This document shows, one piece after another, positions 1,383 to 59,388 of a stretch of DNA of 64,000 nucleotides. The DNA is from Patescibacteria group bacterium (GTDB taxonomy: Bacteria; Patescibacteriota; Patescibacteriia; UBA1558; GWA2-36-10). The stretch covers positions 5,030 to 69,029 of the forward strand of contig JBAZKN010000002.1 of assembly GCA_041650755.1 (NCBI GenBank), written 5' to 3'. A program made the position numbers and the translations under genes. The notes under the pieces were generated by a model that made no database searches, was not told the origin of the DNA, and saw nothing but the letters and a program-made list of their open reading frames with translations. The stretch's first letter is position 1, and the number at the start of each line of letters is the position of its first letter.

Positions 1383-2126
1383 CTAGGAGCGCTGGAAGGC
1401 TTCAATGGGCGGATTACCGCCGAGCCCTGCACCCAAAGAGTAGATAGCCCGAGTAGCTCTATCAGCAATGGCCCGTTTGACTGTTCGTGGGTCTGTTTGG
1501 TCGGCATTGGCGATAAGGTCGCTATAGTCGACCGGCTGTCCGAAAGCAATCAGAATGTCTTTTCCGTTGTGGAAACGCTCCTCTCCCAAGGGGAAGACCT
1601 TTTCCATACCATCGATCCAGACCGGGACAATGGTAGCCCCAGTTTCATAGGCCACGTGGCCTATGCCGATACGCGGCGTGATTGGTTTGTTTGGACGCTC
1701 TCTGGTGCCGCCCGGAAATACAAAGAGTCGGCCATATCTGGCTAGCCGGCTCATGGCTCGCAAGGCACCAGGATCAATCCGGCTATGGGCGATGGGCTGG
1801 ATTTTCATGCACCAGCCCCAGATAGCCATCAATCTAGTCTTCATGTAGTTGGCCTTGTCTGCCGTGTGCCACGGTAGCAGCCACGGGCAGAAGAAGTCCC
1901 TTAGCCGCATAGCTGCTAGGGTCACCGGGAAGGAGTCTACTAACGTAAGGTGCCGACAGGCATAGATCACATTGCGGCCATGGGGTACGTGATGACGGCC
2001 AATGACCCGAGTGCGGTTGAATATGAAGAAGATGACGAAGGTCGCCGATCCAAATAGCGCTAGGATCGGCCAGCGCACCAGGTCAGCCAAGTACATCTTG
2101 GTGACCCTCCACCCAGAGATCTTCAT
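1383..2126 (-). CDS. Lysophospholipid (1-acyl-sn-glycerol-3-phosphate) acyltransferase-like protein (high-GC cassette A)
   Basis: The FPGGTRER acyltransferase motif and an N-terminal TM segment. Local GC about 56% against a backbone below 40%. Strong SD GAAAGGAG 7 nt before the ATG at 2126 (MKISGWRV). GC-rich terminator hairpin downstream (1330-1360). Confidence 0.55.
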   Translation of the reverse strand: MKISGWRVTKMYLADLVRWPILALFGSATFVIFFIFNRTRVIGRHHVPHGRNVIYACRHLTLVDSFPVTLAAMRLRDFFCPWLLPWHTADKANYMKTRLMAIWGWCMKIQPIAHSRIDPGALRAMSRLARYGRLFVFPGGTRERPNKPITPRIGIGHVAYETGATIVPVWIDGMEKVFPLGEERFHNGKDILIAFGQPVDYSDLIANADQTDPRTVKRAIADRATRAIYSLGAGLGGNPPIEAFQRS

Positions 2127-2955: not shown

Positions 2956-3116
2956 ATCAATAAATTGCTAATTGTTAATTGATAATAGTTAATTGTTTTT
3001 GGTACTCCCTGAAGAGCGGCAATTATTAAATTAGCAATTAACTATTTACAATTAAATAGTAGTGCGGCCGGTAGGAGTCGCCGCGCCCGCTGCCTAGTGG
3101 CAGCTTAGGCGGCCAG

Positions 3117-3150
3117 GGAACCCACAATCCCTTGGTCCGAAGCCAAGTGC
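3117..3150 (-). repeat. Partial duplicate of the tRNA-Arg(TCG) anticodon arm plus variable/T region (tRNA fragment)
   Basis: cttggtccgaagccaag (17/17) recurs 70 bp from the same sequence inside tRNA-Arg, followed by a GGGTTC T-arm remnant. Embedded in a GC-rich 120-bp non-coding stretch (3061-3168). Confidence 0.5.
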
Positions 3151-3372: not shown

Positions 3373-3449
3373 TGGTGCCCCCAGTAGGATTCGAACCTAC
3401 GACCGTTTGCTTAAGAGGCAACTGCTCTACCAACTGAGCTATAGGGGCA
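3373..3449 (-). tRNA. tRNA-Lys (anticodon CTT)
   Basis: Reverse complement TGCCCCTATAGCTCAGTTGGTAGAGCAGTTGCCTCTTAAGCAAACGGTCGTAGGTTCGAATCCTACTGGGGGCACCA. Anticodon loop CTCTTAA. Confidence 0.85.
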
Positions 3450-6693: not shown

Positions 6694-7239
6694 TTAGTAG
6701 TCAATACCCGGTCTGGCAATCAAGCCCTGGCTGATGTAGTGTTTTTTGGCATTCATTTCGGTCACCAAATCCGCCAGATCCACGATTTCTTGGGGGCAAT
6801 AGCGCCCTGTCAAAATCAGCTCCAAGTTTTTTGGTTTTTGCTTGATCAAGATAAGGATATCGTCGCAATTTAGCAGGCCAGTTTTTACCGTGGTATTTAT
6901 TTCATCCAGTATCAGTAAATCAAAATTTTTTTTGAACCATAGTTTTGCCTGTTTGATGGCCGCAGCTGCTCCTTTGATGTCGCCAACCTGATTTTTGAAA
7001 CGGAAGCCCTTATTTTTTGACAGGCGCGGTAGACCGAAAGCGCAATAATCTATGTTTAGGTGCTTTATCTTGTCCAGGATTTTTCTTTCACTATAATAAT
7101 CGCCGCCTTTATCAAAATATATGATGCCCACCTTTAGTCCTTGTCCTAAGGCGCGGATAGCCAATCCTAAAGCAGCTGTGGTTTTACCTTTGCCGTGGCC
7201 AGTATAGACATGGATTTTTCCTAATTTATTATTTGACAT
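6694..7239 (-). CDS. cobO: Cob(I)alamin adenosyltransferase (CobA/CobO/BtuR family)
   Basis: P-loop VYTGHGKGKTTAALGLAIRALGQG is typical of BtuR/CobO. Start taken at MSNNK (7239). The 17 upstream codons in the ORF track are GC-rich sequence belonging to the adjacent island. Confidence 0.8.
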   Translation of the reverse strand: MSNNKLGKIHVYTGHGKGKTTAALGLAIRALGQGLKVGIIYFDKGGDYYSERKILDKIKHLNIDYCAFGLPRLSKNKGFRFKNQVGDIKGAAAAIKQAKLWFKKNFDLLILDEINTTVKTGLLNCDDILILIKQKPKNLELILTGRYCPQEIVDLADLVTEMNAKKHYISQGLIARPGIDY

Positions 7240-7304
7240 AAAGTCAGCATTTGTGTTTAAATTTTGAGGTCCCCCGGCTGTTCTTTTCATCAGGGAGGGC
7301 AGCC

Positions 7305-7475
7305 ATGCATTGGTGGCAGACTCGGCCTTTTTGGGTCACATTCTGTGTGGCCATCGGCGCGGTCATGATCTGGCGTATCCAGCATCACGTCTTTGACGTC
7401 ATCGGCGGTTTGTTTATCGCCCTTGGCATAACCATTGCCCTAATCAAGGACAAGGAAGGGAGAAGATGGAGATGA
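7305..7475 (+). CDS. Small membrane protein (56 aa), high-GC cassette C gene 1
   Basis: SD AGGGAGGG 5 nt before the ATG at 7305. Two hydrophobic segments. GC about 60%. Overlaps the next ORF by 10 nt (ATGGAGATGA). Confidence 0.5.
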   Translation: MHWWQTRPFWVTFCVAIGAVMIWRIQHHVFDVIGGLFIALGITIALIKDKEGRRWR

Positions 7476-7834
7476 ACGAAGGCGGCGCGTATCGCTACTT
7501 TTGGCCACTAATGGTCACACTGACGGGCGCGATCATTGTCCTATTCTCGGTTGGCGAGTCGAACCTCGTCTGTTTCATCGGCGCGCTGGTGGCTATCTCG
7601 GGCCTGATCTTCTTTCTGGCCAGGTCTCGCCTGTCCGCCACCCGGACCGTGATTCCAATCAACTGGTTTGCACTAGCGACAATGCTGGCGCTCTATCTCT
7701 GGACCCACGGTGGCCTGGAGGTTTCAACCGGCGATTGGCTGGTCAGCCTCTTGTTGGCTTTGGTGGGTACAGCTGTGCTCTGCTTTTTGCTATTGCTGAC
7801 CGGTTTTTGGATCGCGATCAGCCGTCGTCTATGA
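7466..7834 (+). CDS. Membrane protein (122 aa, 4 TM), cassette C gene 2
   Basis: SD AAGGAAGGGAG upstream. GC3-rich codons. Four hydrophobic helices. Confidence 0.55.
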   Translation: MEMNEGGAYRYFWPLMVTLTGAIIVLFSVGESNLVCFIGALVAISGLIFFLARSRLSATRTVIPINWFALATMLALYLWTHGGLEVSTGDWLVSLLLALVGTAVLCFLLLLTGFWIAISRRL

Positions 7835-7857
7835 TCCGAGTAGACGGAGGTGTGGAT

Positions 7858-7992
7858 ATGCTACAGGAGTTTTTGAAGCAATTGACCCAGTTGCGGTCAG
7901 TCTACATCGTGATGGCCGCGACAATCCTGCTCTTGTTCGCAATCTGGGCAGGGTGTGATTATCTGCCTCGCATTAGGGCGCGGCGACGCTAG
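7858..7992 (+). CDS. Small single-TM protein (44 aa), cassette C gene 3
   Basis: SD GGAGG 7 nt before the ATG at 7858 (MLQEFLKQLTQLRSVYIVMAATILLLFAIW...). Confidence 0.45.
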   Translation: MLQEFLKQLTQLRSVYIVMAATILLLFAIWAGCDYLPRIRARRR

Positions 7993-8039
7993 CCCCGCCC
8001 ATCCATCCCGAAGGGCAGACATGGTTCCGTGTACCTGAC

Positions 8040-8072
8040 CCGTCGAGCCGAGCTCGACGGTTTTTTATTTTT
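8040..8072 (+). terminator. Intrinsic terminator ending cassette C
   Basis: ccgtcgagc cga gctcgacgg followed by ttttttattttt. Confidence 0.8.
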
Positions 8073-8108
8073 AATCAAGACACCTTTTTAAATTTAGTCA
8101 TGATTAAT

Positions 8109-8717
8109 TTATATTAAAAATTTTCTGGTTAGATTATCAATATTTTTATTTTTTAAATATCTATCAATATTTTTTATAGCTTTAGCATGAAAATTATCTC
8201 TATAATATTTTGGCGTCAGCTGAATTTTTGGTTTTAAATAAGAGAGTATTGACTTGGTCCAAGCTCGTATGGGGAATGGTCTACCGTCGTGTAATAGATG
8301 ATATTCTCTTTCTATTTTTTTGCTGGCTGCTAAAAAGTTTTTATAACTTTCAGTAAACGATGATAAGTCGGCAGCTCGTAATATTTTTTGCTCAGTGGTT
8401 TTTAGGGGGTAGCCAGCTTTGGTCGCCATAATTGTTTGTTGGACTTGCTTAACAGCCCCAGTTGGGTATTTTAAAGTTTTTAATTCTCGAGCGGTAATTT
8501 TGCCAGCTAGTTCTTCTTTGTTATTTTTAACTTTATCATAGCCAGCATCATGAAATAGGGCGGCTATTTCTACTATCTCCCGATTGACTGGCACCTTGTA
8601 TTTTTTGCAGCGGTGGATAAATTTTAAAGCTACTCGCCTGACCTTGAGAGCATGAGCAAAATTGTGATAGGGAAGTTTGCCATAATGTTTTCTGGCAATA
8701 GTTTCAATTTTAGTCAT
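8109..8717 (-). CDS. HD-domain phosphohydrolase
   Basis: HNFAHALKV ... LFHDAGY, the H..HD metal-binding motif. Confidence 0.7.
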   Translation of the reverse strand: MTKIETIARKHYGKLPYHNFAHALKVRRVALKFIHRCKKYKVPVNREIVEIAALFHDAGYDKVKNNKEELAGKITARELKTLKYPTGAVKQVQQTIMATKAGYPLKTTEQKILRAADLSSFTESYKNFLAASKKIEREYHLLHDGRPFPIRAWTKSILSYLKPKIQLTPKYYRDNFHAKAIKNIDRYLKNKNIDNLTRKFLI

Positions 8718-8767
8718 TAGTTTTTATTTTATTTAAACTTGTCAAATAAATGCAGGTTTTGGCATTA

Positions 8768-8796
8768 TTGACATTTTTGTGCCATCAGTATAAAGT
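8768..8796 (+). promoter_or_regulatory. sigma70-like promoter (TTGACA ... TATAAA/TAAAGT) in AT-rich DNA, just before the high-GC cassette D
   Basis: ttgaca tttttgtgccatcag tataaagt. The GC-rich ORF starts 80 bp downstream. Confidence 0.4.
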
Positions 8797-8877
8797 AATA
8801 CGTCGTATAGTCAGGAAACTTTGCCAGTGGCTACAAGTGTTCGTTCTGGCCATGTACACACGAGACAAGGAGGCACC

Positions 8878-9210
8878 ATGAAGAAGAAGTCTGCTTTGCT
8901 TGCCATGACCACGGATCACCCCGAATGGGGCAAGTTCATGGCCCGCCTGCATGGTCCAAGGGGGTGCAATGCTCGTCAGAAGAAGGGCGTGGGGACCATC
9001 TACACCTGTGGGCATGAGTCTGATCGTCCTCGCATCAGGGCAATTCTCCAGGAGATGGGGGATGTCGATATCCCTCATACGATGGGGTGCTTCACGAAGC
9101 GGGGCCTCATGTGCGACTGCGCGGTCGCCCGCAGCGGCATCGCGCCCGCGCCGAAGCGGGTGCTGCCAGAGCAGCGTTCGTGGTGGGAGATCATGATGTC
9201 GCGACCGTAG
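8878..9210 (+). CDS. Cys/His-rich small protein (110 aa), cassette D gene 1
   Basis: Perfect SD caAGGAGGcacc before the ATG at 8878. Strong GC3 periodicity. Motifs GCNAR..., CGHESD, HTMGC, LMCDC suggest metal binding. Terminator-like hairpin downstream. Confidence 0.6.
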   Translation: MKKKSALLAMTTDHPEWGKFMARLHGPRGCNARQKKGVGTIYTCGHESDRPRIRAILQEMGDVDIPHTMGCFTKRGLMCDCAVARSGIAPAPKRVLPEQRSWWEIMMSRP

Positions 9211-9527
9211 GCTTGCCTTTAGCCGTCCACTGGGACCCTTCGAGGGTTCTGTGGGCGGTGTTTTTTTATTTTTCAATTATTTTTTTCTTGCCACCTTTTT
9301 ACCCTTCAACTCCCCCTCGACTTGGTTCGACTACGCTCACCACAAGTCGCTCGGGGTCAGACAACACGGTTTTTTAACGTGGCTAGTCGCTGCCAAATTT
9401 TAAGTTTTTCTAAGGGCGGGGTCGTTTGATTTATTTTTTAATCAAATTTTCTAAGTATAATTATTATAGAAAACATCCTGAGAGGGGGCGGGGATGCGTC
9501 GGGTGCATCCCCGAGAAGACTGGTGAT

Positions 9528-9713
9528 TCAGTACTTGCGATAAGGGTGCTCAGGCCCAGGGCCGCCGTGCTTGATCGGCTCGCCGTTCATTGGCCAGCGG
9601 CATCGTGGGCACTTGCGGAATGGAGGAGGATTGTTCACATCCTCGTGGCTGGTGTCGGTGTATAGACATCCAACGTTAGAGCACGCCCAAGTGTAATTTG
9701 GCGGAGGGAACAT
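9528..9713 (-). CDS. Zinc-ribbon-like mini-protein (61 aa), cassette D gene 2, convergent with gene 1
   Basis: SD aAAGGAGaaagacc before the ATG. CxxxxC ... CPRC spacing. An 8-bp perfect hairpin GGGGATGC/GCATCCCC lies just past the stop. Confidence 0.55.
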   Translation of the reverse strand: MFPPPNYTWACSNVGCLYTDTSHEDVNNPPPFRKCPRCRWPMNGEPIKHGGPGPEHPYRKY

Positions 9714-9865
9714 GGTCTTTCTCCTTTGGGGGATGTGGTTCTTTGGCCTCTTCTCAAGATGTTTTAAAGAGCGAGATTATGTAATTAATTTTATTTATTT
9801 TGTAATATAAATGGGAAATGTATTTCACTACACTAAACCCCTACCTTTTTGGCAGGGGTTTATAA

Positions 9866-12814
9866 TTATTTCATATCACATGCCCCTTTGAATCCACACT
9901 GCTTTGAACATTCCGTGCAACCGCCCATTTTGACCATAATGCCTTGCTTGCAGTTGGGGCAGATTTTACCGACCTCTGTGCCATAGCGATCATCTAGCTC
10001 TTCTTGCAGTACTTCTTTGGCAATTTCCAAGTGCTTTAAGGGGTTTTGGATTTCCGGCATTTCTACCGTATCTGGCGTGGGGGCAATGGCCACCTTAAGA
10101 GTTTTCTGCTCGGTTTCTTTTTTGCCGTTGTAAGCCAGATTTTTCTTTTCGGTTTCTTTATCTAGAGACAATACCTGTTCTTGCCGGCTGGCATCACGAT
10201 AAATAGTCACACCTTTACAACCTAGCTCGTAAGCTTGTTCATAGAGAACAGTAGTTTGTTCGACGCTGAAGTCAGCTGGAGCATTAGCCGTTTTGCTGAT
10301 AGAAGAGTCTGTCCAGCGTTGGACAGCTGCCTGCACCTTGATGTGATCGAGAGGAGACAGGTCCATGGCTGATACAAAGAAATCAGGCAGGTGACCATTG
10401 TGTTTGTAGAGATCAGCTAGCGGTATATAGACTTCGTGAAAACCAAGTCTGGATTGGCGGTAAAATTTGAAAGCATAATATGGCTCGATGCCGGTAGACG
10501 TCCCCAACATTGATCCGACTGTGCCGGTTGGCGCTTGCGTAGTCAGCGTGACATTGCGCAGGCCCTGCTCGCGGATCATGCCTCTCACATCTTCGGGCAA
10601 AGTTTTGACAAATCCGGTTTCTAAGAATTTTTCTGATTCAAACTTCGGGAATGAGCCTTTTTCTTTGGCCAGCCGAGATGATTCACGGTACATCTCGATT
10701 GTAATAGTCTGGAAAAGGCGGTCAATAAGTGGGGCTGCTTCACTGGAGCCATATTTGAGGCGCAGTTTTATTAATAATTCGCCCAAGCCCAAAGTGCCGC
10801 CACCGATGCGGCGCTCATTTTTTTGATTCAGCTCATTTTCTTTGAAGTGATAGGGCGTAAGGTCAATGACATTATCCAAAAATCTGGTCAAAACTCTGGC
10901 AGATTTTTTCAGGCCCTCCCAATCAAGCTCATACAATGGCCCTAGTTCGTCTTCACCCACCTGTCTGGCAAAAGAAGCCAAGTAAAGATGTCCTAAGTTG
11001 CAGACGCCCCAGGGCGGTAAGCCTTGCTCGCCGCAGGGATTGGTGGACACTAGCTTGTTGTAGTAGCTGGAATTGCTCAGTTTGTTGTAGCGCTCCATAA
11101 ATACTACGCCCGGTTCAGCACTGGCATGGGCCGAAGCAATGATTTTGTTCCATAGATCCCGCGCCTTGATGGTCTTGTATATTTTTACCGGATAGCCGGC
11201 GGCTTTCCAGGCATGCAGGTCGCCATCCCAGATATTGTCATAGATATCTTTATAGGCCGGGTTTTCATAGTCGGGGAACTCCAGATTCCAATATTCGTCA
11301 TTTTTGACGGCCTTCATAAAGGCATCAGATACCATGACGGAAATATTAGCATTTTCTATTTGGCCGGCTTTGGTTTTGGAGCTGATAAATTCTAAAATAT
11401 CCGGATGCCAGTCCCATTGCATCAGCATCAGGGCTCCTCGGCGCGAACCGCCTTGTTCTATCAGCCCGGTAGCATAAGAAAATAATCCCCCCCAAGAAAC
11501 AGAGCCAGAAGATTTGCCGTGCACGCCTTTGACGTAGGCATATCTGGGGCGCAAGGCAGATAGCGACATGCCCACGCCGCCACCGCGAGAAAAAACTTCG
11601 GTCATATGATAGAGCGTGTCAGCAATGATGGCTTTGCGGGAGTCGCGCGGTCCGGGCAAGACATAGCAATTGAATAGTGTCAGGTTGGAGGTGTAGTTGC
11701 CGTGGGTGTCGACGTTGGCGCCGGTCATGATGCGGCCGCCTGGCTGGATATGCTTGTCGTGCAATTCTTCAAAAAATATTTCAAAATATTTTTCTTTATT
11801 TTCCGGGCTAGTTTCCACTGAAGCCACAGCCTTGGCAATCCGGCGGTGAGCATCCTCTATGGATTCTCGCGGCTTGTCGCATTTATATAGGTCTTGCTCA
11901 AATTCAAAATTATTGGCCGGATCAGCAAAAGCGCCAGTCAGCATATGCAGGATAGTTTTGTCATCGGGCAAAATGTGCTTGATGATGCCCAAGTCTTTTT
12001 TGGGATATTTGCGGTCTTCTTTGGAGATGACAATTACCAGATCACCTAGCTCTATATCCTCCCTTTTATCTTTGATAGAGTAGCGATCAAGAAAAATGAT
12101 CCGACCCAGCTCATCAAAGCCAACAGAGTTATTTAGAATATGCTTAGCCTGCTTGCTGAGATTGATGCCTTTGGCCTCCAGAGCCTTTACTTCCGGCGAA
12201 GTGACTTCCTTACCCAGTTCGAGGCGGATTTTTTTGCGCTGTTCGCGGTAGAGGATAAAGGCTTTGGCGGTTTTGGCCCAATTTGACTGGATCAAGATGA
12301 TTTCTATGATATCTTGGATTTGTTCGACGTTTGGTATGGTGTGGCCGTCATACTTATGCTCTAGTATGGAGATGGTAATATCCGCCAGTTTTTTGGCTTC
12401 CAGCTCATCAAACTCCTGGGTAGCATTGCCGGCCTTAAGAATCGCCATAAAGACCTTGTTTTTATCAAAGTCAACAATGGTGCCGTCCCGTTTGCGTATT
12501 TTAGTGATATTAGAAAAAATTTTTTGCTGGGCGTCAGCCTTAGCATTTCTAGTTTTAAAGTAAGCCTTGGCTACTTGGGGCAGATTGTTTTCCAATAATA
12601 CTATATTTACAGCACTGCGGATGTCGTCGCTGGTAATCAATTCTTCGTCTGAATAGATATTTTCGATATATTTGACCACTTGTTGGGCGAATTTATCAGT
12701 TAAAGGGTTGTCTTGCAGGCCGGCACTCAAAAGGGCGCCTTTTAGAGAAGCGGCGATTTTGTCTTGGTCAAAATCTTCGGTGTTACCGGAGCGTTTTTTC
12801 ACTTGGCGAGCCAT
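9866..12814 (-). CDS. nrdJ: Class II (adenosylcobalamin-dependent) ribonucleotide reductase with N-terminal ATP-cone and C-terminal Zn ribbon
   Basis: ATP-cone (VKKRSGNTEDFDQDKIAASL), the catalytic NPCGEQ motif and a C-terminal CPNCKQG...CTECSKQC. Start taken at MARQVKK (12814). The 28 extra N-terminal residues of the ORF-track model (ATG at 12898) would overlap the upstream palindromes. Confidence 0.85.
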   Translation of the reverse strand: MARQVKKRSGNTEDFDQDKIAASLKGALLSAGLQDNPLTDKFAQQVVKYIENIYSDEELITSDDIRSAVNIVLLENNLPQVAKAYFKTRNAKADAQQKIFSNITKIRKRDGTIVDFDKNKVFMAILKAGNATQEFDELEAKKLADITISILEHKYDGHTIPNVEQIQDIIEIILIQSNWAKTAKAFILYREQRKKIRLELGKEVTSPEVKALEAKGINLSKQAKHILNNSVGFDELGRIIFLDRYSIKDKREDIELGDLVIVISKEDRKYPKKDLGIIKHILPDDKTILHMLTGAFADPANNFEFEQDLYKCDKPRESIEDAHRRIAKAVASVETSPENKEKYFEIFFEELHDKHIQPGGRIMTGANVDTHGNYTSNLTLFNCYVLPGPRDSRKAIIADTLYHMTEVFSRGGGVGMSLSALRPRYAYVKGVHGKSSGSVSWGGLFSYATGLIEQGGSRRGALMLMQWDWHPDILEFISSKTKAGQIENANISVMVSDAFMKAVKNDEYWNLEFPDYENPAYKDIYDNIWDGDLHAWKAAGYPVKIYKTIKARDLWNKIIASAHASAEPGVVFMERYNKLSNSSYYNKLVSTNPCGEQGLPPWGVCNLGHLYLASFARQVGEDELGPLYELDWEGLKKSARVLTRFLDNVIDLTPYHFKENELNQKNERRIGGGTLGLGELLIKLRLKYGSSEAAPLIDRLFQTITIEMYRESSRLAKEKGSFPKFESEKFLETGFVKTLPEDVRGMIREQGLRNVTLTTQAPTGTVGSMLGTSTGIEPYYAFKFYRQSRLGFHEVYIPLADLYKHNGHLPDFFVSAMDLSPLDHIKVQAAVQRWTDSSISKTANAPADFSVEQTTVLYEQAYELGCKGVTIYRDASRQEQVLSLDKETEKKNLAYNGKKETEQKTLKVAIAPTPDTVEMPEIQNPLKHLEIAKEVLQEELDDRYGTEVGKICPNCKQGIMVKMGGCTECSKQCGFKGACDMK

Positions 12815-15470: not shown

Positions 15471-16052
15471 TTATTTTTTTAAAAATGGGTTAGGCATATT
15501 AAATATTATTTTTGGTGTGTGATTATTTATTCTATCCAGAGATATTTTGTATTTTTTGGCGTAGATGATGTCGGCAGCACCAAAAATAGCTTTTTTGTAA
15601 TCCAAACTAAGCCGCCGGCAAATATTTTTGACCTTTTTTTCTGAACAATCTTCGATTTCTAGATATGGGTCTAGGAAGGGCCAATGGTCGATTGTTATTT
15701 CGGCGCCATTTAGTTTCCACAATTCCCGCCAGTTTTCTTGATAGGCTTTTTGTTCGCAGCCCAAGCACAGTAATAATTGTCTAGCTGTTTCCAGGTTGTC
15801 TATTTTTAAGCAAATTTCTTTTTGGTCGGTGATTTTTGAGCCGCGGACCACTTTTAGACTCATGGTAATTTTGTCTTTTTCCTGGCGCAGTCTTAGCCAT
15901 GATCCTTTTTTGTTTTTAGGTAAATTAAAAATGTACCGTTTTTGCAAAAAAGAGGAGTAGATTTTTTTGGCGCCAATTTTTTTAAGTTGTCTTCGGATTG
16001 CCGAGACATTAATATCCAAAAAAGTGGCCTCGTATTCTATGGGTAAACGCAT
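15471..16052 (-). CDS. CYTH-domain protein (CyaB/thiamine-triphosphatase-like)
   Basis: N-terminal EYEATF motif region, 193 aa. Family call is moderate. Confidence 0.45.
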   Translation of the reverse strand: MRLPIEYEATFLDINVSAIRRQLKKIGAKKIYSSFLQKRYIFNLPKNKKGSWLRLRQEKDKITMSLKVVRGSKITDQKEICLKIDNLETARQLLLCLGCEQKAYQENWRELWKLNGAEITIDHWPFLDPYLEIEDCSEKKVKNICRRLSLDYKKAIFGAADIIYAKKYKISLDRINNHTPKIIFNMPNPFLKK

Positions 16053-16095
16053 ATAGGCAATTATACCATATTTTTTTGTGTTTAGGGGGCGTGTA

Positions 16096-16124
16096 TTGAC
16101 AATTTTATTATATTTTGCTATAAT
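16096..16124 (+). promoter_or_regulatory. Perfect-consensus sigma70 promoter TTGACA-N17-TATAAT preceding cassette E
   Basis: ttgaca attttattatattttgc tataat. A roughly 120-nt leader follows, with a hairpin (cagtc...ggcctttgtgaaacaggcc...gactg), then the SD AAAGGAGG. Confidence 0.55.
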
Positions 16125-16248
16125 ATTTTGATACAGTCAAAAGTTGGCCTTTGTGAAACAGGCCCTAGACTGTTACTTTGAACCTTCAATTATTCTCCCA
16201 AGTACTATGCTATAACAAAACGCCTAACGGCAGGCAAAAGGAGGCCTC

Positions 16249-16968
16249 ATGGACAAAGCGTTGTTGGAACAGGTGGCCGGGCGACTAGACGAGAAAGTCG
16301 CCGTGGCCCAACTACTGGTGGTGCACATGCTCGCTTCTGACCCTCCTTCATCCGAGGTTGATATGCTGGCCATTCACGGACTCTCGGCCGGCATGTACCA
16401 GAGCGGGAATCTCCTGGAGTGCGCTGCCGAGCTCTGGCGTTCAGGGCTTGCCAGCCACATGGCAGTGGTCGGCGGTGACGGCAGTCCGACGGGCCAGTCG
16501 GCTCCGGGAGCATCCTGGGTCGGGTCCAGCTTTCTGATCGAAGAGCTGGCCAAGCGCGAAGTCCCCCAAGACCAGATCATCGTGATGGATCCCATCACCC
16601 ACACCAAGGAGGAGGCTTACGCCATCGTCCGGGCGGCCATGAAGCACGGGTACCGGAGCGTGATGAGCGTAACGGTGCCTTACCATGGCCCCAGAGTGCT
16701 CTCCTGCCTGGTCGCGGTGATGAAAGAGTTGGGCTACTGGATCGAGTGGCACATGATGGTGCCGCCCAAGGTCAACTGGACCCTGGAGATGGTCGCTTCC
16801 CAGGGCAAGGGCACGACCAACTCCCTGTTCGCGGCCATGGACGATGCCGCCAAGGTCCAGAAGTACGTGGACAACAGTTTCGGTGCTTCCTACCCGGAGG
16901 TGATCTACTACCTGCTCAATCGTGCTCGGATCGTCGAGCACCAGCAGTGGGATTTCCCTGGGGCGTAA
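16249..16968 (+). CDS. DUF218 (YdcF/ElyC/SanA)-like protein, high-GC cassette E
   Basis: SD aAAGGAGGcctc ATG. GC about 62%. Motifs VVGGDGS, THTKEEAYAI and TVPYHGPRV align with the DUF218 GG, NTxENA and TSxxHMxRA boxes. Confidence 0.5.
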   Translation: MDKALLEQVAGRLDEKVAVAQLLVVHMLASDPPSSEVDMLAIHGLSAGMYQSGNLLECAAELWRSGLASHMAVVGGDGSPTGQSAPGASWVGSSFLIEELAKREVPQDQIIVMDPITHTKEEAYAIVRAAMKHGYRSVMSVTVPYHGPRVLSCLVAVMKELGYWIEWHMMVPPKVNWTLEMVASQGKGTTNSLFAAMDDAAKVQKYVDNSFGASYPEVIYYLLNRARIVEHQQWDFPGA

Positions 16969-17070
16969 CCCAGCAGATGAGCATAGAGCCGGCCGCGTCG
17001 TCGTTTATCAAGCGATGGCGCGGCTTTTATTTTTATATGAGTAATACCATTTTTTTAGGGTCTATGATAG

Positions 17071-17136
17071 AATTTACCCTGTTAAATAACTCCGCTTAGC
17101 GGAGTTGCCGCGCGGCGGCATTTAACAGGGTAAATT
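17071..17136 (+). repeat. Structured 66-bp element, copy 1
   Basis: 17-bp perfect outer inverted repeat aatttaccctGTTAAAT / ATTTAACagggtaaatt enclosing hairpins aactccgc-ttag-gcggagtt and gccgc-gcg-gcggc. Ends 21 nt before the DUF2207 ATG. Confidence 0.7.
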
Positions 17137-17157
17137 TGTAAGATTAATAAAGTATTT

Positions 17158-22248: not shown

Positions 22249-22253
22249 TTTAT

Positions 22254-23516
22254 TTAACAGGGCAAATTAATTATTTTTTTAGGTGCCAAGCGTATGCTTT
22301 TTTCCAAGCTCGCCATATCTACTCTGACTGGCGACCCTTTGCGTAAATAGTCAACTATATCAGGCAGCTTAGTCATCAGATATTCTAGATCTTTTTTGGT
22401 GGTGTATTTACCCAAAGTAAAGCGTAGTGAGCCGTGGGCGGCTTCATAAGGCCTGCCCAAAGCGCGGATGACGTGGGATGGCTCTAGGGTAGTAGAGGTA
22501 CAGGCCGAGCCAGTAGATGCCTGAACGCCAACTTCATCTAAGTACAATAACAAGGCTTCACCTTCTATGTCCAGTATAGAAATATTTATATTGTTGGGCA
22601 GCCTTTTTTCTGCGTGGCCGTTGAGTATAGTTTTGGGGATTTTTTTGAGGATAGATTTTATCAGCCAATCTCGTAAAATAATTAAGCGTCGATTTTCTTT
22701 TTCTCTATTTTTTTGAGCTAATTTTAAAGCTGCGGCCAGGCCGATGATGCCAGGTACATTTTCTGTTCCTGAACGCAGATTTTTTTCTTGACCGCCACCA
22801 TCTATCAGCGGCGCTAAAGGTGTGCCGCGTCGCGCATAGAGCAAACCAACTCCTTTGGGACCATAGATTTTACTGCCGTTAATGGTCAGCAAATCAACGT
22901 GCATTTTTTGGACATCAAGCGGCAGGGCTCCGGCTGCTTGGCAAGCATCAGTGTGAAAATAAATCTTATTGAGCCCGCTTTTTTGTCTAGCCATATTGAC
23001 CCTAGTAAGATTAGCGCCAATTTTTTGGATGGGTTGGAGCGTGCCAATCTCATTGTTGGCAGTCATGATGCTCACCAGCATTGTATTTGGCCTAATAGCT
23101 CGATTGAGCAGCGGCTCCATGATAATGCCGTCATCGTCAACTGGTACAATGGATACGGTGAAGCCCTGTTTGGCCAGATGTTCGGCTGTATGCAGGACAG
23201 CATGATGCTCGATGGCTGAAATTATCAGGTGCGGTTTATTTTTTTCTGTCAAAAAATTATAAGTCAAGCCCTTGATAGCCAGAGCAATGCTTTCAGTACC
23301 GCCGCTGGTAAAGATTATTTCTTCAGCTTGGCAATTTAGAATTTGAGCAAGATCAGTCCGAGCATTTTCAACAGCTTGTTTAGCCATTAAACCAAGAGAG
23401 TAGAGGCTGGATGGATTGCCAAATTTATCCGACCAATATGGCGCCATAGCCCGAAGCACGACCGGGTCGACGGGAGTGGTGGCCGCGTAGTCCAAATAAA
23501 TATTTTTTCTAGGCAT
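22254..23516 (-). CDS. Cysteine desulfurase (NifS/IscS class V aminotransferase)
   Basis: HTDACQAAG, PLP-lysine region INGSKIYGPKG. 420 aa. Confidence 0.85.
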   Translation of the reverse strand: MPRKNIYLDYAATTPVDPVVLRAMAPYWSDKFGNPSSLYSLGLMAKQAVENARTDLAQILNCQAEEIIFTSGGTESIALAIKGLTYNFLTEKNKPHLIISAIEHHAVLHTAEHLAKQGFTVSIVPVDDDGIIMEPLLNRAIRPNTMLVSIMTANNEIGTLQPIQKIGANLTRVNMARQKSGLNKIYFHTDACQAAGALPLDVQKMHVDLLTINGSKIYGPKGVGLLYARRGTPLAPLIDGGGQEKNLRSGTENVPGIIGLAAALKLAQKNREKENRRLIILRDWLIKSILKKIPKTILNGHAEKRLPNNINISILDIEGEALLLYLDEVGVQASTGSACTSTTLEPSHVIRALGRPYEAAHGSLRFTLGKYTTKKDLEYLMTKLPDIVDYLRKGSPVRVDMASLEKSIRLAPKKIINLPC

Positions 23517-23824: not shown

Positions 23825-23853
23825 TTGACAATTTTTTCTATATATGATATAAT
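23825..23853 (+). promoter_or_regulatory. Perfect-consensus sigma70 promoter TTGACA-N17-TATAAT preceding cassette G
   Basis: ttgaca attttttctatatatga tataat. A 70-nt leader with the hairpin tggcc-tttt-ggcca follows, then the SD AAGGGAG. Confidence 0.55.
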
Positions 23854-23924
23854 ATAATGTTAAGTCGTACATAGACAACTATTCTGTAGCTTTTCTTGGC
23901 CTTTTGGCCAGAAGGGAGACCATA

Positions 23925-24959
23925 ATGAGCGGGACAGTTCGTCTAGTCAAGAAAATCGTGACTCATGTCAAGCCCCATCTGGATGAGCTGGTGGCCATTT
24001 GGCTGCTCGTCCGGTGGGGGGAGAAACACTTCCCCGGCATCAACACTGTGCCAGTAGAGGTCTGGCGCAAGGGGTTGGAGTCCGCCGACGGCCGCTCCTT
24101 TGAGGAGCATGAGGACGAAGGCACGATGTTCATCGGGATTGGCGGCGGCCAGTTCGATGAGCACCCGACCAACGGCACTGACGATCTGTCTGGTGAGTGC
24201 GCGGCCACTCTGGTCGCCAAGCGTCTGGGCATCCAAGACGACCCGGCTCTCGAAAGGATTCTGGACTTCGTTCGTCGGATTGACACCAAAGGTGGCGCCA
24301 ATCCTTGGGACATCTCGGCTGTCGTTAAGGCGGCCAACGAAGTCGGCAAAGGTCTGCCGGAGCTGCTCACCTGGGTGTTCTTGGCGCTTGATGCCAAGTA
24401 TGAACAGCAGGTCAAGTTCCTCGAGGCAGAGGCCGATGCCAACATCGCCCAATGGGATACGGTCGGCTCTGTGCGGGTAGCTACCGCAGAATCTGACAAC
24501 CAGCAGGTCTACAAGGTGCTTTTCACTAGGGGTGCGGCGGTGGCGATTGTTCGCCGGCGTCAGGATGGCCGAGTGGCCATCTTCACGCAGAAGCGTGACA
24601 ACATCAGGCTCACTGACGCTGTCAGGATCATCCGCCGCTTGGAGCAGAAGGCTCGCGGCGATGTCAGGACTACCAACTGGAAGGAGCTGGCAGCGCCTGG
24701 TTCCATCGACGCTGTGGCGCGCTGGTACTATCTTAAGGAGGGTGAAATGCTGCTGAACGGCAGCGATACCCACCCCGATACGCCGGCTACCGGTCTGTCC
24801 CTTTCCACCATCCGTCAGGCGGTCATCTTGGCCCTTTCTGGCGAGATGATCTGCTCGCAGGCCAATGTCTGCGACGGGAAGTCCTGCAAGTGGTATCAGC
24901 TCGGCCTGAGCCGGTGCCAGACAATTCGCTACAGAATGTCGAGTGGCCAATCGCAGTAG
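23925..24959 (+). CDS. MYG1/UPF0160-like metal-dependent hydrolase, high-GC cassette G
   Basis: N-terminal KKIVTHVKPHLDELVAIWLL fits the MYG1 T-H-x-x-x-H-x-D-E signature. GC about 60%. SD present. Terminator downstream. Confidence 0.45.
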   Translation: MSGTVRLVKKIVTHVKPHLDELVAIWLLVRWGEKHFPGINTVPVEVWRKGLESADGRSFEEHEDEGTMFIGIGGGQFDEHPTNGTDDLSGECAATLVAKRLGIQDDPALERILDFVRRIDTKGGANPWDISAVVKAANEVGKGLPELLTWVFLALDAKYEQQVKFLEAEADANIAQWDTVGSVRVATAESDNQQVYKVLFTRGAAVAIVRRRQDGRVAIFTQKRDNIRLTDAVRIIRRLEQKARGDVRTTNWKELAAPGSIDAVARWYYLKEGEMLLNGSDTHPDTPATGLSLSTIRQAVILALSGEMICSQANVCDGKSCKWYQLGLSRCQTIRYRMSSGQSQ

Positions 24960-24983: not shown

Positions 24984-25030
24984 AAGAGCTCGGAGCGGCG
25001 TCAGCCGACACCCCGAGCTCTTTTCTTTTT
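24984..25030 (+). terminator. Intrinsic terminator ending cassette G
   Basis: aagagctcgg ... ccgagctctt ttctttttat (10-bp stem). Confidence 0.75.
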
Positions 25031-25087
25031 ATAAATTTTTTACAAAAGCGTATTCGAAACCAGCAAAGCAACCTGAGCTAAGATAAA

Positions 25088-25140
25088 TTTTGAGGTTGCG
25101 AAGCAAGTTGAGCGCAGGCGAGCTGAGTTCGCCGAAGTCG
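25088..25140 (+). promoter_or_regulatory. Three to four degenerate ~17-18-bp direct repeats (gcRaagcaaSYtgagc-like) immediately upstream of a promoter
   Basis: gcaaagcaacctgagc / gcgaagcaagttgagc / gcaggcgagctgagttc / gccgaagtcgaaacttgac. Candidate binding array for a transcription factor. Confidence 0.35.
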
Positions 25141-25144: not shown

Positions 25145-25173
25145 TTGACAAAACCATTTTTTTGTGCTATCAT
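25145..25173 (+). promoter_or_regulatory. sigma70-like promoter TTGACA-N17-TATCAT
   Basis: ttgaca aaaccatttttttgtgc tatcat. Confidence 0.5.
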
Positions 25174-25188
25174 TACTATGTAGTTTGA

Positions 25189-25230
25189 AATTGGCTTTGA
25201 GCCCCAGTAGAAGGGGCGGCCAATTTTTTT
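25189..25230 (+). terminator. Attenuator-like intrinsic terminator between the promoter and the first small ORF (or 3' end of a ~45-nt sRNA)
   Basis: aattggc tttga gcccc agtagaa ggggc g gccaatt ttttttt. Confidence 0.5.
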
Positions 25231-25243
25231 ATTATAAAAATAT

Positions 25244-25402
25244 ATGATTACTAATGCTCTTCAAACCCCAAAATTACAGTCATTTAAAATGGTAATAAAG
25301 CCCGGCGATAGCAAATTACGTTCGGGCGATTATTGGGCAATTTTGGTTTTGTGCTTGGTTGGCTCTATTACCTTAATTGTGATGATGACTCAGGCCATTT
25401 AA
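25244..25402 (+). CDS. Small single-TM peptide 1 (52 aa)
   Basis: MITNALQTPKLQSFKMVIKPGDSKLRSGDYWAILVLCLVGSITLIVMMTQAI. Paralogous C-terminal half with peptide 2 (xWAIxxLxxL...VLM). Confidence 0.3.
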   Translation: MITNALQTPKLQSFKMVIKPGDSKLRSGDYWAILVLCLVGSITLIVMMTQAI

Positions 25403-25426
25403 AATTAATAATTAAATATAAAATTT

Positions 25427-25573
25427 ATGACTCCAGAAGGACCAATGTGCCAAGTAAAGTCTTGGAAGAGAGCTGGCTTTTATTGTAGCCCAGAAGTAGC
25501 CAGCCATGAAAATTGGGCAATTTTCAGCTTGGTAGTTTTGAGCTACTTTGTGTTAATGAGCACCATAGTATAA
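25427..25573 (+). CDS. Small single-TM peptide 2 (48 aa)
   Basis: MTPEGPMCQVKSWKRAGFYCSPEVASHENWAIFSLVVLSYFVLMSTIV. Confidence 0.3.
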   Translation: MTPEGPMCQVKSWKRAGFYCSPEVASHENWAIFSLVVLSYFVLMSTIV

Positions 25574-25586
25574 AGATTTAAAATAT

Positions 25587-25664
25587 ATGTGGTCAAAAAC
25601 ACAGCTCTTGGGCCCCCTGATATTATTATTATTTACCTGGGCCCCCTATGCTCTTTATTGTTAA
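25587..25664 (+). CDS. Small hydrophobic peptide 3 (25 aa)
   Basis: MWSKTQLLGPLILLLFTWAPYALYC. Speculative. Confidence 0.2.
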   Translation: MWSKTQLLGPLILLLFTWAPYALYC

Positions 25665-25718
25665 AAAATAAACAATATGTCACCATGATTTTTTAAGGTT
25701 CGCTCTAAGGCCTACCTG

Positions 25719-25753
25719 CCCACCCTGTACCATATGGTATGGGGTGGGTTTTG
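25719..25753 (+). terminator. Intrinsic terminator ending the small-peptide unit
   Basis: cccaccctgtaccata/tggtatggggtggg followed by tttt. Confidence 0.65.
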
Positions 25754-33250: not shown

Positions 33251-33325
33251 AGTGCCTTCCCCCGCAAAATGTATGAGCGAAGCGAATACTATTTTGCGCG
33301 GTCCCGCAACACGAAATTTTTTTAA

Positions 33326-33514: not shown

Positions 33515-33958
33515 ATGACATGGGAATATATAGCAGGTTTTTTTGATGGCGAAGGATCCATAGTTTACAATGGTAGTGGTTTTAGATTAACAATCGCCCA
33601 AACGAACCTTACGGTGTTAGATAGTATAAGTAGGTTTACAAAAATTGGTCAGGTTATAAAGGTCACCAAACGTCAGGTTCACTGGAAAGATAGTTGGGTA
33701 TATTATATAAGCAAACAGGAAGACATTTTATTTTTTGTGAGACATATCCAAAATTTTTCAATAGTTAAAAAACAAAAAATAAATATAGTATTGCCGAGGC
33801 TCATAAAAGCAGTTTCCAATAATAGAGATAGGATTTTAAAGAGACAACTATTGACTAAATCAGCTAAAGCTCTGAGAAAAAATGGTTTAAGTTATAGAGA
33901 AATAGGCAAGAGATTAAATATGGATTTTGGACAAGCGCGTCGTTTGATAAAAAGATAA
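33515..33958 (+). CDS. Free-standing LAGLIDADG homing endonuclease with C-terminal HTH
   Basis: MTWEYIAGFFDGEGSIVYNGSGFRL: single LAGLIDADG motif (IAGFFDGEGS). C-terminal GLSYREIGKRLNMDFGQARRLIKR. 147 aa. No flanking intron or intein context found. Confidence 0.7.
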   Translation: MTWEYIAGFFDGEGSIVYNGSGFRLTIAQTNLTVLDSISRFTKIGQVIKVTKRQVHWKDSWVYYISKQEDILFFVRHIQNFSIVKKQKINIVLPRLIKAVSNNRDRILKRQLLTKSAKALRKNGLSYREIGKRLNMDFGQARRLIKR

Positions 33959-33970: not shown

Positions 33971-34048
33971 GGTGGCAGTAGCTCAGTTGGTTAGAGCATC
34001 GGGTTGTGGTCCCGGCGGTCGTGGGTTCGAGACCCATCTGCCACCCCA
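33971..34048 (+). tRNA. tRNA-His (anticodon GTG) with encoded G-1 and CCA
   Basis: G-GTGGCAGTAGCTCAGTTGGTTAGAGCATCGGGTTGTGGTCCCGGCGGTCGTGGGTTCGAGACCCATCTGCCAC-C-CCA. Confidence 0.85.
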
Positions 34049-34086
34049 TCGAAGATCCTGAGCGAACGTAGTGAGTCGAAGGATCA
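34043..34086 (+). repeat. 44-bp direct repeat, left copy (overlaps the last 6 nt of tRNA-His); attL-like
   Basis: accccatcgaagatcctgagcgaacgtagtgagtcgaaggatca, identical to 35761-35804. Each copy is followed by a similar hairpin plus T-run. Confidence 0.85.
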
Positions 34087-34350
34087 AAAAACACCCAATT
34101 TTCTTTGAGTGTTTTTTGTTCGTTATAATTTGACTAAATATATAATAATTGCTATAGTATCTTGTTGTTTTTCATATATTTCGTAGTCTGCTTTTTGTTT
34201 ATTTATATGAGTAAAAAGCAGGCTAAGAAAACGCTTAGTCTTTGTTCCGTTAAATAATTTTTTGTGTACGAAGGGGGGTGAACCAGACCGTTGTTCTGTC
34301 GGCAATCTCGTGTGCTAGGGTTCTGGATTCATTCAAGGAGGTATGGGAGG

Positions 34351-35613: not shown

Positions 35614-35760
35614 TCCGCCATCGTGAGAGGTTCGCAACCCAAACTGCCGTCTCAACAATCCTTGCAGGTGAGAGATGGCGTTTTCATTTATTTAAAATTG
35701 TAGATAGGGTATATGATAAGTATTTGAAATTAGTATAGTCCCGATACGTTTTACGACGCG

Positions 35761-35804
35761 ACCCCATCGAAGATCCTGAGCGAACGTAGTGAGTCGAAGG
35801 ATCA
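35761..35804 (+). repeat. 44-bp direct repeat, right copy; attR-like
   Basis: Perfect match to 34043-34086. Followed by tcaccc..gggtgg ttttttg terminator-like hairpin. Confidence 0.85.
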
Positions 35805-35868
35805 CAAAATCACCCTGAGCGTAGTCGAATGGGTGGTTTTTTGATATAATGGAGAAAATAAATTCACC

Positions 35869-39161: not shown

Positions 39162-39668
39162 TTGTATATTATTATGGGATTTAGTCAGGACAATTTTATA
39201 GCCCATTACGAAAAATACAAAGATAAAATATATGTATATTTTTTGTATCGAGTCGGCTTTAATAGGGAAACAGCCGAGGACCTGACCTCCGAAGTGTTTT
39301 TGAAAGCTCTCAAGAGTTTTTCGACCTTTGACCAAAATAGATCTTTTCAGTCATGGATTTATGCCATTGCTCATAATCATTTGGTTAATCATTATCGAGT
39401 AGCTAATCGCGAAGTGGAGCTGACGGAAAATGTTTCCATCACCCAAAGCGACCACAAAAAAATAGAGCTAGGATATGAGCTAGAGTTGATTTTAAAAGAA
39501 ATAAATAAAATGGAAGCCAACGACAGAGATATTTTATTGCTGCGCTTTGTGGATCAGCTGGATAATTCTGAAATAGCCGAGCTTTTGGGCAAAGAAGAAG
39601 GAGCAGTCCGCACCAAAATTAGTCGCAGCTTGGCAAAGTTAAGAGAAAAATTAGACGGACATGGATAA
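39162..39668 (+). CDS. ECF-type sigma-70 factor
   Basis: Region 2 (ETAEDLTSEVFLKALKSFSTFD...SWIYAIAHNHLVNHYR) and region 4 HTH (DNSEIAELLGKEEGAVRTKISRSLAKLRE). Confidence 0.8.
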   Translation: MYIIMGFSQDNFIAHYEKYKDKIYVYFLYRVGFNRETAEDLTSEVFLKALKSFSTFDQNRSFQSWIYAIAHNHLVNHYRVANREVELTENVSITQSDHKKIELGYELELILKEINKMEANDRDILLLRFVDQLDNSEIAELLGKEEGAVRTKISRSLAKLREKLDGHG

Positions 39669-56914: not shown

Positions 56915-56924
56915 AAATAAAAAA

Positions 56925-56962
56925 CCGCCCGGACCAAGTTCGGCCAGCGGGCGAGGAGGTGG
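56925..56962 (-). terminator. Intrinsic terminator for the small minus-strand gene
   Basis: ccgcccgctggccgaacttggtccgggcgg followed by tttttattttt on the minus strand. Confidence 0.7.
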
Positions 56963-56969
56963 GGTGAAA

Positions 56970-57182: not shown

Positions 57183-57367
57183 CTTGTTGGCCTCCCCAAA
57201 GAGCAGAAGGAACAGATGGTAGCAAAAGCAATCCTAGTTTCAATTTTAAATATTGTCAAGCTCGTGCTATATTGATTATATATGGCCGATAGGACATATC
57301 ATATTATTGGCTGATTGTGGTAGTAGCTTAAGCATAGGTTCAATCAGGCCCTAAGATTGATAACACC

Positions 57368-59292: not shown

Positions 59293-59388
59293 TTATCATA
59301 AAACGACACAAAAAGAAAAACTCGCCGCGTGAGTCCACCTGATGGTGGCGCAGCGAGCTTGAGGGAGAGGGGGGGGTGGGCGGGGTGC

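Follow-up and report, generated by a model that had tools for sequence, protein, structure and literature searches.

Consensus promoters of GC-rich gene units in a Patescibacteria chromosome as possible parts of exchangeable expression modules

Introduction

Natural promoters rarely have all of their elements at consensus at once. Why, then, should two such promoters lie within a single stretch of bacterial DNA, each upstream of a GC-rich gene? The stretch, referred to below as the window, comprises 64,000 nucleotides of a 236-kb metagenome contig (GenBank assembly GCA_041650755.1, contig JBAZKN010000002.1, positions 5,030 to 69,029) from a member of the Patescibacteria, or Candidate Phyla Radiation (CPR), with an overall GC content of 0.43. 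The original prediction, made from the sequence alone, held that a perfect promoter stands before each foreign cassette in a host that does not depend on Shine–Dalgarno (SD) sequences, and it offered two explanations: either selection had strengthened the promoters after the genes were acquired, or promoter and leader travel with the cassette.

We find that the two promoters belong to two of nine GC-rich units, nearly all of whose genes have a strong SD sequence. In our assessment, with a probability of roughly 0.6, such units pass horizontally from one CPR genome to another as complete, expression-ready chromosomal modules that resemble the morons of phages, with promoter and SD sequence as parts of the module. 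This is a gene-import pattern of a known type, in varied form, and not a new mechanism.

Results

A pattern search of the window returned exactly two copies of TTGACA-N17-TATAAT, at 16096–16124 and 23825–23853, both on the forward strand, in agreement with what had been predicted for the units called cassettes E and G. The promoter of cassette E reads TTGACA-ATTTTATTATATTTTGC-TATAAT and that of cassette G TTGACA-ATTTTTTCTATATATGA-TATAAT; each matches the consensus hexamers at 12/12 positions and in addition carries the extended -10 element (TGcTATAAT and TGaTATAAT, respectively), and the two have TATTGACAATTTT in common. One-mismatch sites also number two, at 25145–25173 on the forward strand and 59968–59940 on the reverse strand. 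The latter is the promoter of cassette J, which had been described as TTGACA-N17-TATTAT and was indeed found, as TTGACA-N17-TGtTATTAT (59940–59968, reverse strand; 11/12 plus TG). The promoter claimed for cassette D matches the consensus only in part: its TTGACA is present, within TTGACA-N17-TAAAGT at 8768–8796.

A first-order Markov model of the intergenic DNA in the window (8863 nt, GC 0.38), run 3000 times, gave a mean expectation of 0.003 exact sites against the two observed, and no run produced two or more. The original prediction had named a background effect of low GC as the finding that would undo it, and this comparison speaks against such an effect. Both exact sites also lie on the correct strand and at a plausible distance from a gene, with the -10 hexamer ending 124 nt (E) and 71 nt (G) before the start codon; the corresponding distances for J and D are 80 and 81 nt. 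By these features the sites at 16096 and 23825 look like functional promoters of the primary sigma factor (sigma-70/RpoD type). They share with known sigma-70 extended -10 promoters the TTGACA, the 17-bp spacer, the TGn and the TATAAT, are well placed upstream of a gene and are kept in an orthologous locus. They differ in their setting, because native promoters of the window mostly have the extended -10 element only, and the full form marks a distinct class of units.

This class consists of nine GC-rich units, cassettes A and C to J, which together hold 11 genes. Seven were recognized as blocks above GC 0.52, and two smaller units were added on reading the sequence. The cassette genes have a mean GC content at third codon positions (GC3) of 0.71, with a range of 0.58–0.89, against a mean of 0.42 for the 56 native genes of the window. 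Each unit ends in a long GC-rich hairpin followed by a run of Ts, as expected of an intrinsic terminator, and in E, G, J, D, H and I the gene is enclosed between its own promoter and its own factor-independent terminator. In cassette E, the promoter is followed by a leader of ~117 nt (16131–16248) with the SD sequence AAAAGGAGG at 16236–16244, an open reading frame (ORF) for a DUF218/YdcF-like protein of 239 aa (16249–16968; GC 0.61, GC3 0.80) and an intrinsic terminator with a 16-bp GC-rich stem and a T-run (16991–17035), all on the forward strand. Cassette G, also on the forward strand, has a leader of ~65 nt (23860–23924), in which a hairpin at 23890–23918 pairs partly with the SD sequence AGAAGGGAG (23910–23918; duplex -8.7 kcal/mol), an ORF for a phosphoesterase of the DHH/DHHA1 fold (23925–24959; 344 aa, GC 0.60, GC3 0.73) and an intrinsic terminator with 17-nt arms (24984–25031).

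The signals for starting transcription and translation divide the window into two sets of genes. To score SD sequences, we paired the 18 nt upstream of every start codon with the 16S tail ACCUCCUUU and called a duplex of -6 kcal/mol or stronger a strong SD. By this measure, 10 of the 11 cassette genes but just 1 of the 56 native genes have one (Fisher p = 5e-10), which bears out the earlier view of the host backbone as SD-independent. The cassette SD sequences are placed 5–9 nt before the start codon, whereas native genes have A/T-rich sequence such as aaataaaaatATG ahead of the start. Native promoters are typically TGnTATAAT with a -35 region matching at only 1–4 of 6 positions, and the element ends 6–40 nt before the ATG (20 nt for ribonucleotide reductase (RNR), 29 nt for pyruvate:ferredoxin oxidoreductase (PFOR) and 26 nt for the P-type ATPase). 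At the native CYTH gene beside cassette E (15471–16052, reverse strand), TGgTATAAT (~16061–16069) ends 7 nt before the ATG, and the mRNA is probably leaderless; at several other native genes the -10 ends 6–30 nt from the start codon, and native leaders measure 0–40 nt. Most cassettes, in contrast, have a full -35 together with an extended -10 element that ends 48–192 nt before the ATG.

Promoter scores averaged 11.25 in the eight cassettes that have intergenic DNA upstream and 9.71 in 31 native genes (Mann-Whitney p = 0.016), and exact TTGACA occurs in 5 of these 8 cassettes and in 3 of the 31 native genes. The expected excess of cassettes over backbone genes is therefore present, but the association is not absolute. 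Among the eight cassettes, two promoters match at 12/12, one at 11/12 and three at 10/12, and two have nothing good; A and F are without a good promoter, and the candidate site of C lies within the upstream gene. With only E and G perfect, or two of nine units, the idea of a perfect promoter before each foreign cassette does not hold. The description of the leaders stands in part: a long leader and an SD-like sequence are found in E, G, J and D, the weakest SD being that of J (-4.6 kcal/mol), whereas the leader hairpin does not hold up as a general feature. Compared with shuffled sequences, folding is better for the leader of G (z = -2.3) and for that of a native small-ORF operon, and not for those of E, J, D or H. 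In Rfam searches, the whole window gave only tRNAs at the gathering score, and the E leader gave no match at E-values up to 1; microRNA matches in permissive searches of the E leader and the region after E were rejected as hairpin artefacts.

Nor is a near-perfect promoter in itself a mark of foreign DNA, as had been implied. The native small-ORF operon (25145–25749, forward strand) is low in GC and starts with TTGACA-N17-TGcTATCAT (25145–25173; 11/12 plus TG), followed by a leader with a stable, terminator- or attenuator-like hairpin and seven Ts (z = -3.7), SD-less ORFs of 52, 48 and 25 aa and a terminator at 25718–25749. Its promoter, its hairpin and its 52-aa peptide, with the motif KPGDxxLRxxDYWAI, are kept in a sister species (L083; loci of other genomes are labelled L) and at the distant CPR loci L011:18817 and L016:20674, and this could be a conserved small RNA or attenuator. 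In Moranbacteria (L027, L028), a 12/12 promoter with a spacer of 16 precedes the native operon of ribosomal protein L10, again without an SD sequence. Because native operons in other CPR genomes and in the window thus reach 11–12/12, a consensus promoter in CPR bacteria signals strong expression and not foreign origin per se; SD sequence and high GC are what sets the cassettes apart.

Relatives of cassettes E, G and H were then compared for whether the promoter goes with the gene. Cassette E has only two detectable relatives, and a metagenome scan with E alone found nothing. Its three copies stand in three different contexts: between the genes for the CYTH and DUF2207 proteins in the window, after tRNA-Asn at L089, and in the interval from CobA to RNR at L091, a distantly related but syntenic genome with backbone proteins 35–78% identical. 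A TTGACA-N17 promoter precedes all three copies, the two homologues scoring 10–11/12. The promoter spacers of the window and L089 agree at 12 of 17 positions, a similarity that ranks in the top 1% when compared with 11,478 unrelated promoter pairs, and the terminators of these two copies are homologous.

Cassette G is syntenic in the sister species L083, where the order is ferredoxin, G, two small ORFs and PFOR. Its promoter there has the hexamers, the TG and the N17 spacing unchanged (12/12 plus TG), with 15 of 17 spacer positions identical, the SD of G is conserved and the terminator hairpin is identical; the intergenic DNA around it is ~75% identical and the coding sequence of G 60–75%. We surveyed the G family at 33 further metagenome loci with a flank GC of 0.31–0.54, 31 of them with enough upstream sequence. 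The promoter score was at least 11.5 at 26 of the 31 loci, against 6 of 50 flanking control genes; a strong SD was present at 31 of 33, and the GC of the gene exceeded that of its flanks by a mean of 0.081. The layout recurs in three homologues of cassette H (L143, L145 and L146), whose contexts all differ.

Two inserts at tRNA genes bear directly on whether the promoter belongs to the unit. Cassette H (34040–35809, forward strand) lies between 52-nt direct repeats (34040–34091 and 35758–35809; 96% identical) that start with the final nine bases of tRNA-His, and both its promoter (34130) and its terminator lie between the repeats. A homologue of E found on L089/L090 (64% identical) lies between copies of the 3' end of tRNA-Asn with its downstream hairpin, and its TTGACA starts ~5 nt past the repeat. 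Several G and H homologues adjoin tRNA or tmRNA genes. Within cassette H, the promoter TTGACT-N17-TGcTATAGT (34130–34158) is followed by a 192-nt leader, the SD sequence AAGGAGG and an ORF for a PepT-like M20 peptidase with a GC3 of 0.89 (34351–35613). Just upstream of this insertion site, between tRNA-Arg(tct) and tRNA-His, a free-standing ORF resembling a LAGLIDADG-type homing endonuclease occupies 33515–33958 (147 aa, GC 0.32).

The relatives of the two larger families point within the CPR. The 127 relatives of G, where named, are assigned only to Pacebacteria, Parcubacteria or Patescibacteria, except for one metagenome-assembled genome labelled Bacteroidales. Relatives of H at 40–78% identity are all from CPR bacteria, followed by a gap down to Firmicutes PepT at 33–36%. 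An origin in another phylum, such as an actinobacterial host, was rejected because the nearest G and H relatives are all CPR.

Similar genes occur elsewhere in the CPR. Among 80 other CPR loci we took those with a GC below 0.46 (845 genes) and defined an outlier as a gene with a GC3 at least 0.15 above the locus median. A strong SD was present in 12 of the 21 outliers, for example L007:737, L011:13303, L016:13551 and L013:9536, against 74 of 784 typical genes (Fisher p = 1.4e-7), and a promoter score of at least 11.5 in 8 of 19 outliers against 32 of 371 typical genes. The window is nonetheless dense in such units, with nine per 64 kb against ~1 per 50 kb elsewhere. As a separate observation, two Saccharibacteria loci (L039:5720 and L043:1758, both reverse strand) have a perfect TTGACA-N17-TGcTATAAT promoter, and between this promoter and the ORF lie ~200 nt of conserved non-coding sequence, which has no Rfam match and may be a leader or a small RNA.

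The remaining units vary in size and cargo. Cassette A encodes a PlsC-like acyltransferase (ORF 1383–2126, reverse strand; SD AAAGGAG, GC3 0.65) and has no consensus promoter. Cassette C (7305–8068, forward strand) comprises three small membrane-protein ORFs (7305–7475, 7466–7834 and 7858–7992), each with a strong SD, and a terminator at 8040–8060; its sole candidate promoter, TTGACA-N18-TTAAAT (7233–7262), is the one inside the upstream gene. In cassette D (8768–9267, forward strand), promoter and leader are followed by the SD sequence AAGGAGG, an ORF at 8878–9210 (110 aa, GC3 0.77) and a terminator at 9223–9267. Cassette F (9528–9713, reverse strand) is a Cys-rich ORF of 61 aa with the SD sequence AAAGGAG, a GC of 0.58 and no good -35. 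Cassette I (56917–57259, reverse strand) has TTGACA-N17-TAGGAT (57259–57231), the SD sequence GGGGAGG, a 70-aa ORF (56970–57182) and a terminator at 56917–56953. In cassette J (59310–59859 from terminator to ORF, reverse strand), an ORF of 156 aa with a GC3 of 0.71 (59389–59859) precedes the terminator at 59310–59357. The cassette G protein has no Pfam or NCBIfam match; its structural model (pLDDT 91.5) matches pAp phosphatase, NrnA and NrN with a Foldseek probability of 1.0, and it has a Cys-rich C-terminal tail. On the strength of this model it could be a near-core enzyme.

The neighbouring genes are largely of housekeeping type and include those for RNR, PNPase, PFOR, SufS/NifU, SOD, AhpC, ribosomal protein S15 and an extracytoplasmic-function (ECF) sigma factor, together with four tRNAs. 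The DUF2207 protein that adjoins cassette E has relatives only in Patescibacteria, of which a Candidatus Kerfeldbacteria protein is the best at 46% identity; reference genomes, scanned for a close relative in which the insertion sites are empty, offered nothing nearer than this. At 39162–40524, the gene for the ECF-type sigma factor (168 aa) precedes one for a DUF5667 protein, a possible anti-sigma partner; no other alternative sigma factor was seen in the window. A gene for a fibronectin-III/Ig-domain surface protein (37837–38949, reverse strand) contains three tandem 282-nt repeats, 61–85% identical, at 38031–38844.

Several repeated or structured elements lie near the units. A 67-nt imperfect palindrome, with arms AATTTACCCTGTTAAAT and ATTTAACAGGGTAAATT around two small hairpins, occurs at 17071–17137, past the terminator of E, and at 59227–59293, between the terminator of J and the start codon of a XerA-like tyrosine recombinase gene. 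The two copies are 81% identical and both in forward orientation, their inner hairpin shows two compensatory pairs, and a half-site lies at 22251–22268 on the reverse strand. Arms related to the palindrome lengthen the hairpin of the L10 leader in L022 and L028, and not in L027. Short GC-rich intergenic repeats (GAGCGAAGCGAA and CTGAGCGTAGTCGAA), often hairpins, occur at 9320–9355, 25095–25140, 33262–33300, 34055–34085 and 35770–35840; the stretch of ~100 nt at 25035–25140 that holds such repeats is missing from the sister locus L083. The interval from the CobA/BtuR-like gene to RNR (7290–9866) is a variable hotspot: an HD-domain gene and cassettes C, D and F occupy it in the window, and at L091 (3728–12308) the cargo differs and comprises, among others, NUDIX genes, a PycTM (Pycsar effector-like) gene and the E homologue. 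In the tRNA cluster adjoining cassette A, tRNA-like sequences called by neither ARAGORN nor Rfam lie at 2873–2956 and also at ~3062–3135. Positions 2873–2917 are 89% identical to the 3' half of tRNA-Lys (3373–3448) and 2933–2956 match its 5' part; these sequences could be a divergent tRNA or a pseudogene. The fragment at 2873–2917 was rejected as an att remnant, since it extends to a whole tRNA-like copy (2873–2956).

Discussion

Our results favour a model in which the promoter is part of the GC-rich unit, and they support the travel of promoter with cassette better than selection after acquisition, the other idea of the original prediction. The promoter half of that idea draws on the repeat-bounded inserts, the homology of spacer and terminator between E copies, the conservation in L083 and the survey of the G family; the leader half finds no such support, as leaders show no homology. 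A typical unit consists of a promoter, a leader of 48–192 nt, a strong SD, between one and three GC-rich ORFs and an intrinsic terminator of high GC, and its sequence predicts a transcript of ~0.5–1.5 kb that ends at this terminator. As we picture it, transcription would be strong and constitutive, because native operons that are expected to be highly expressed share the promoter form. Translation would depend on the SD, because a GC-rich start region cannot offer the unstructured A/U-rich context of native genes, and selection would keep both promoter and SD. Whole units would move between genomes, at least sometimes by site-specific recombination directed to tRNA genes and supplied in trans, and promoter, SD and terminator would travel or be maintained with the gene, whereas the specific leader would not.

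A number of observations weigh against such exchange. Direct repeats were searched for around E, G, D, C and J, and none stood above noise; these five units have no adjacent tRNA in the window either, and no unit contains an integrase, transposase or phage gene. To judge from the relatives found, families G and H are confined to the CPR, and no high-GC donor clade emerges when 30 G proteins, each marked with its GC, are placed in a neighbour-joining tree. Scans of viral contigs with the G alignment and with H gave nothing, PHROGs returned for H only generic M20-peptidase homology and no specific match, and PADLOC returned nothing and hence no link to defence. The leaders cannot be aligned between cassettes or within the G family. 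Cassette G, moreover, is no recent arrival: at fourfold degenerate sites of conserved residues, the window and L083 are 0.47 identical in G and 0.54–0.56 identical in its backbone neighbours, and this only slightly greater divergence favours co-inheritance since the split from L083 over a replacement of G by a foreign copy. On this comparison, G appears to have been at its locus since before the two species separated. Its GC at fourfold sites, 0.72–0.73 in both species, fits both an import of long ago whose high GC is still declining and a gene whose GC is actively maintained. At the G-family loci L097, L100 and L110/L111, GC3 is not raised, yet promoter and SD are strong, so that, for this family, selection on a vertically inherited gene would explain the signals equally well. 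Finally, start codons in the G-family, flanking-control and 80-locus surveys were picked by best SD, which inflates the SD calls, equally in both classes compared.

It is possible, if rather doubtful, that the promoters were instead optimised in place, the foreign ORFs having come promoterless and selection for expression, in a host that is AT-rich and SD-independent, having driven local sequence to consensus. The promoter DNA shares the AT-richness of the host and not the high GC of the ORFs, the non-homologous leaders have only short functional motifs in common, which convergence could yield, and A and F persist without a good promoter. But in the inserts at tRNA-His and tRNA-Asn the promoter is enclosed by the repeats, an E copy that stands elsewhere has a homologous spacer and terminator, and the promoter recurs at 26 of 31 G-family loci across very different genomes. 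Native genes, furthermore, manage on an extended -10 alone, so there is no obvious pressure to build a full -35. We consider it less probable still that the units are native, vertically inherited and highly expressed genes whose high GC3 results from codon selection or GC-biased gene conversion. Cassette G fits this best, as a CPR-wide DHH phosphoesterase, possibly a housekeeping nanoRNase-like enzyme, that is syntenic with L083, has a synonymous divergence near that of the backbone and keeps its signals where GC3 is not raised; the native L10 and small-ORF operons, with promoters of 11–12/12, are also compatible with it. Against this stand the native genes expected to be highly expressed, those for S15, AhpC, SOD and L10, which have no SD (window and L027/L028), and a GC3 excess of 0.3–0.45, far above what codon selection usually yields. 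The E, G and H homologues in unrelated contexts, the direct repeats at tRNA genes, which point to insertion, and the mere two detectable relatives of E are likewise hard to reconcile with vertical descent.

Integron-like or Xer-mediated capture at the 67-nt palindrome is improbable. The XerA-like enzyme (58437–59225) is the only tyrosine recombinase in the window and lies outside J; the two palindrome copies just past the E and J terminators, one abutting the start codon of this recombinase, and the compensatory pairs of the inner hairpin would suit such a scheme. However, the palindrome accompanies only two of the nine units, both copies have the forward orientation although E and J are opposed, and motifs like GTTRRRY and RYYYAAC come in the wrong order for attC, on which grounds we rejected the element as an attC site. 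The palindrome is also missing at both E homologues (L089 and L091), related arms are found inside an L10 leader hairpin elsewhere, and the units have their own promoters and form no cassette array. As for chance in AT-rich intergenic DNA, or an assembly chimera, either is hardly credible. Loose consensus matches are indeed more frequent in the low-GC intergenic DNA than in shuffles (60–84 against 38–51 per 20 kb), but the two exact sites far exceed the number expected, both have the TG, and orientation and distance are right. The promoter is also kept in L083, where the locus is syntenic in another species, and the E locus recurs with the same junctions in an independent Logan assembly; with two independent assemblies carrying it, chimerism is unlikely.

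The exchange of whole units, which we prefer to these alternatives, has partial counterparts in known systems. Morons are autonomous units of phage genomes, each a gene with its promoter and terminator, that lie inserted between other genes and deviate in composition (PMC3594210). The units described here likewise have their own promoter and factor-independent terminator and a composition unlike that of their neighbours, and they are inserted between unrelated genes, with varied cargo, and recur in different contexts. Unlike morons, they lie in a cellular chromosome among housekeeping genes with no phage genes nearby, their GC is above and not below that of the host, and their translation-initiation signals differ from those of the host as well; because a phage context was tested for and found absent, we do not file them as morons. 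The insert of cassette H at tRNA-His and that of the E homologue at tRNA-Asn resemble tRNA-targeted islets in being bounded by direct repeats that include the tRNA 3' end, but the units are only 1–1.7 kb long and have no integrase, and E, G, D, C and J of the window have neither repeats nor a tRNA beside them. With integron cassettes they share small single-gene units and, beside one of them, a tyrosine recombinase and a palindromic element; they differ in having their own promoters and terminators, most of them lack an attC, and an array, an attI and a Pc promoter are all absent.

The signals for translation also have a parallel. In the Bacteroidia, translation is blind to SD sequences, with rare SD-bearing genes such as rpsU (PMC7797042, PMC9976891). 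Here, too, the bulk of genes lack an SD and a small minority have a very strong one, but the SD-bearing genes are GC-rich accessory units and not a ribosomal autoregulator. Tsurumaki et al. found the anti-SD motif to be missing from about half of the 16S genes of Parcubacteria (PMC9297842), which indicates that CPR lineages differ in their use of SD sequences; SD-using CPR lineages of higher GC would on this view be plausible donors of the units. More tentatively, CPR bacteria might work with two sets of signals: a native set, with extended -10 promoters, short or no leaders and no SD, and that of a pan-CPR pool of GC-rich, plug-and-play units, each with a full consensus promoter, a long leader and a strong SD, that move without a recombinase of their own, for instance into the 3' ends of tRNA genes. 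SD-led translation might then be a separate and possibly conditional channel in hosts that mostly ignore the SD or lack the anti-SD.

In summary, one small genome holds two sharply different sets of start signals for transcription and translation. The combination of high GC3, a full -35 with an extended -10, a long leader, a strong SD and a strong terminator may serve as a signature of exchanged genes in CPR genomes, for which there is almost no experimental genetics and in which a sequence signature is therefore of use. It also makes questions testable, such as whether the ribosomes of SD-poor CPR bacteria pair with an SD and whether a GC-rich imported gene needs one. For the few genetically tractable CPR bacteria, the promoters and SD sequences of the units are, in addition, ready-made candidate parts of expression tools.

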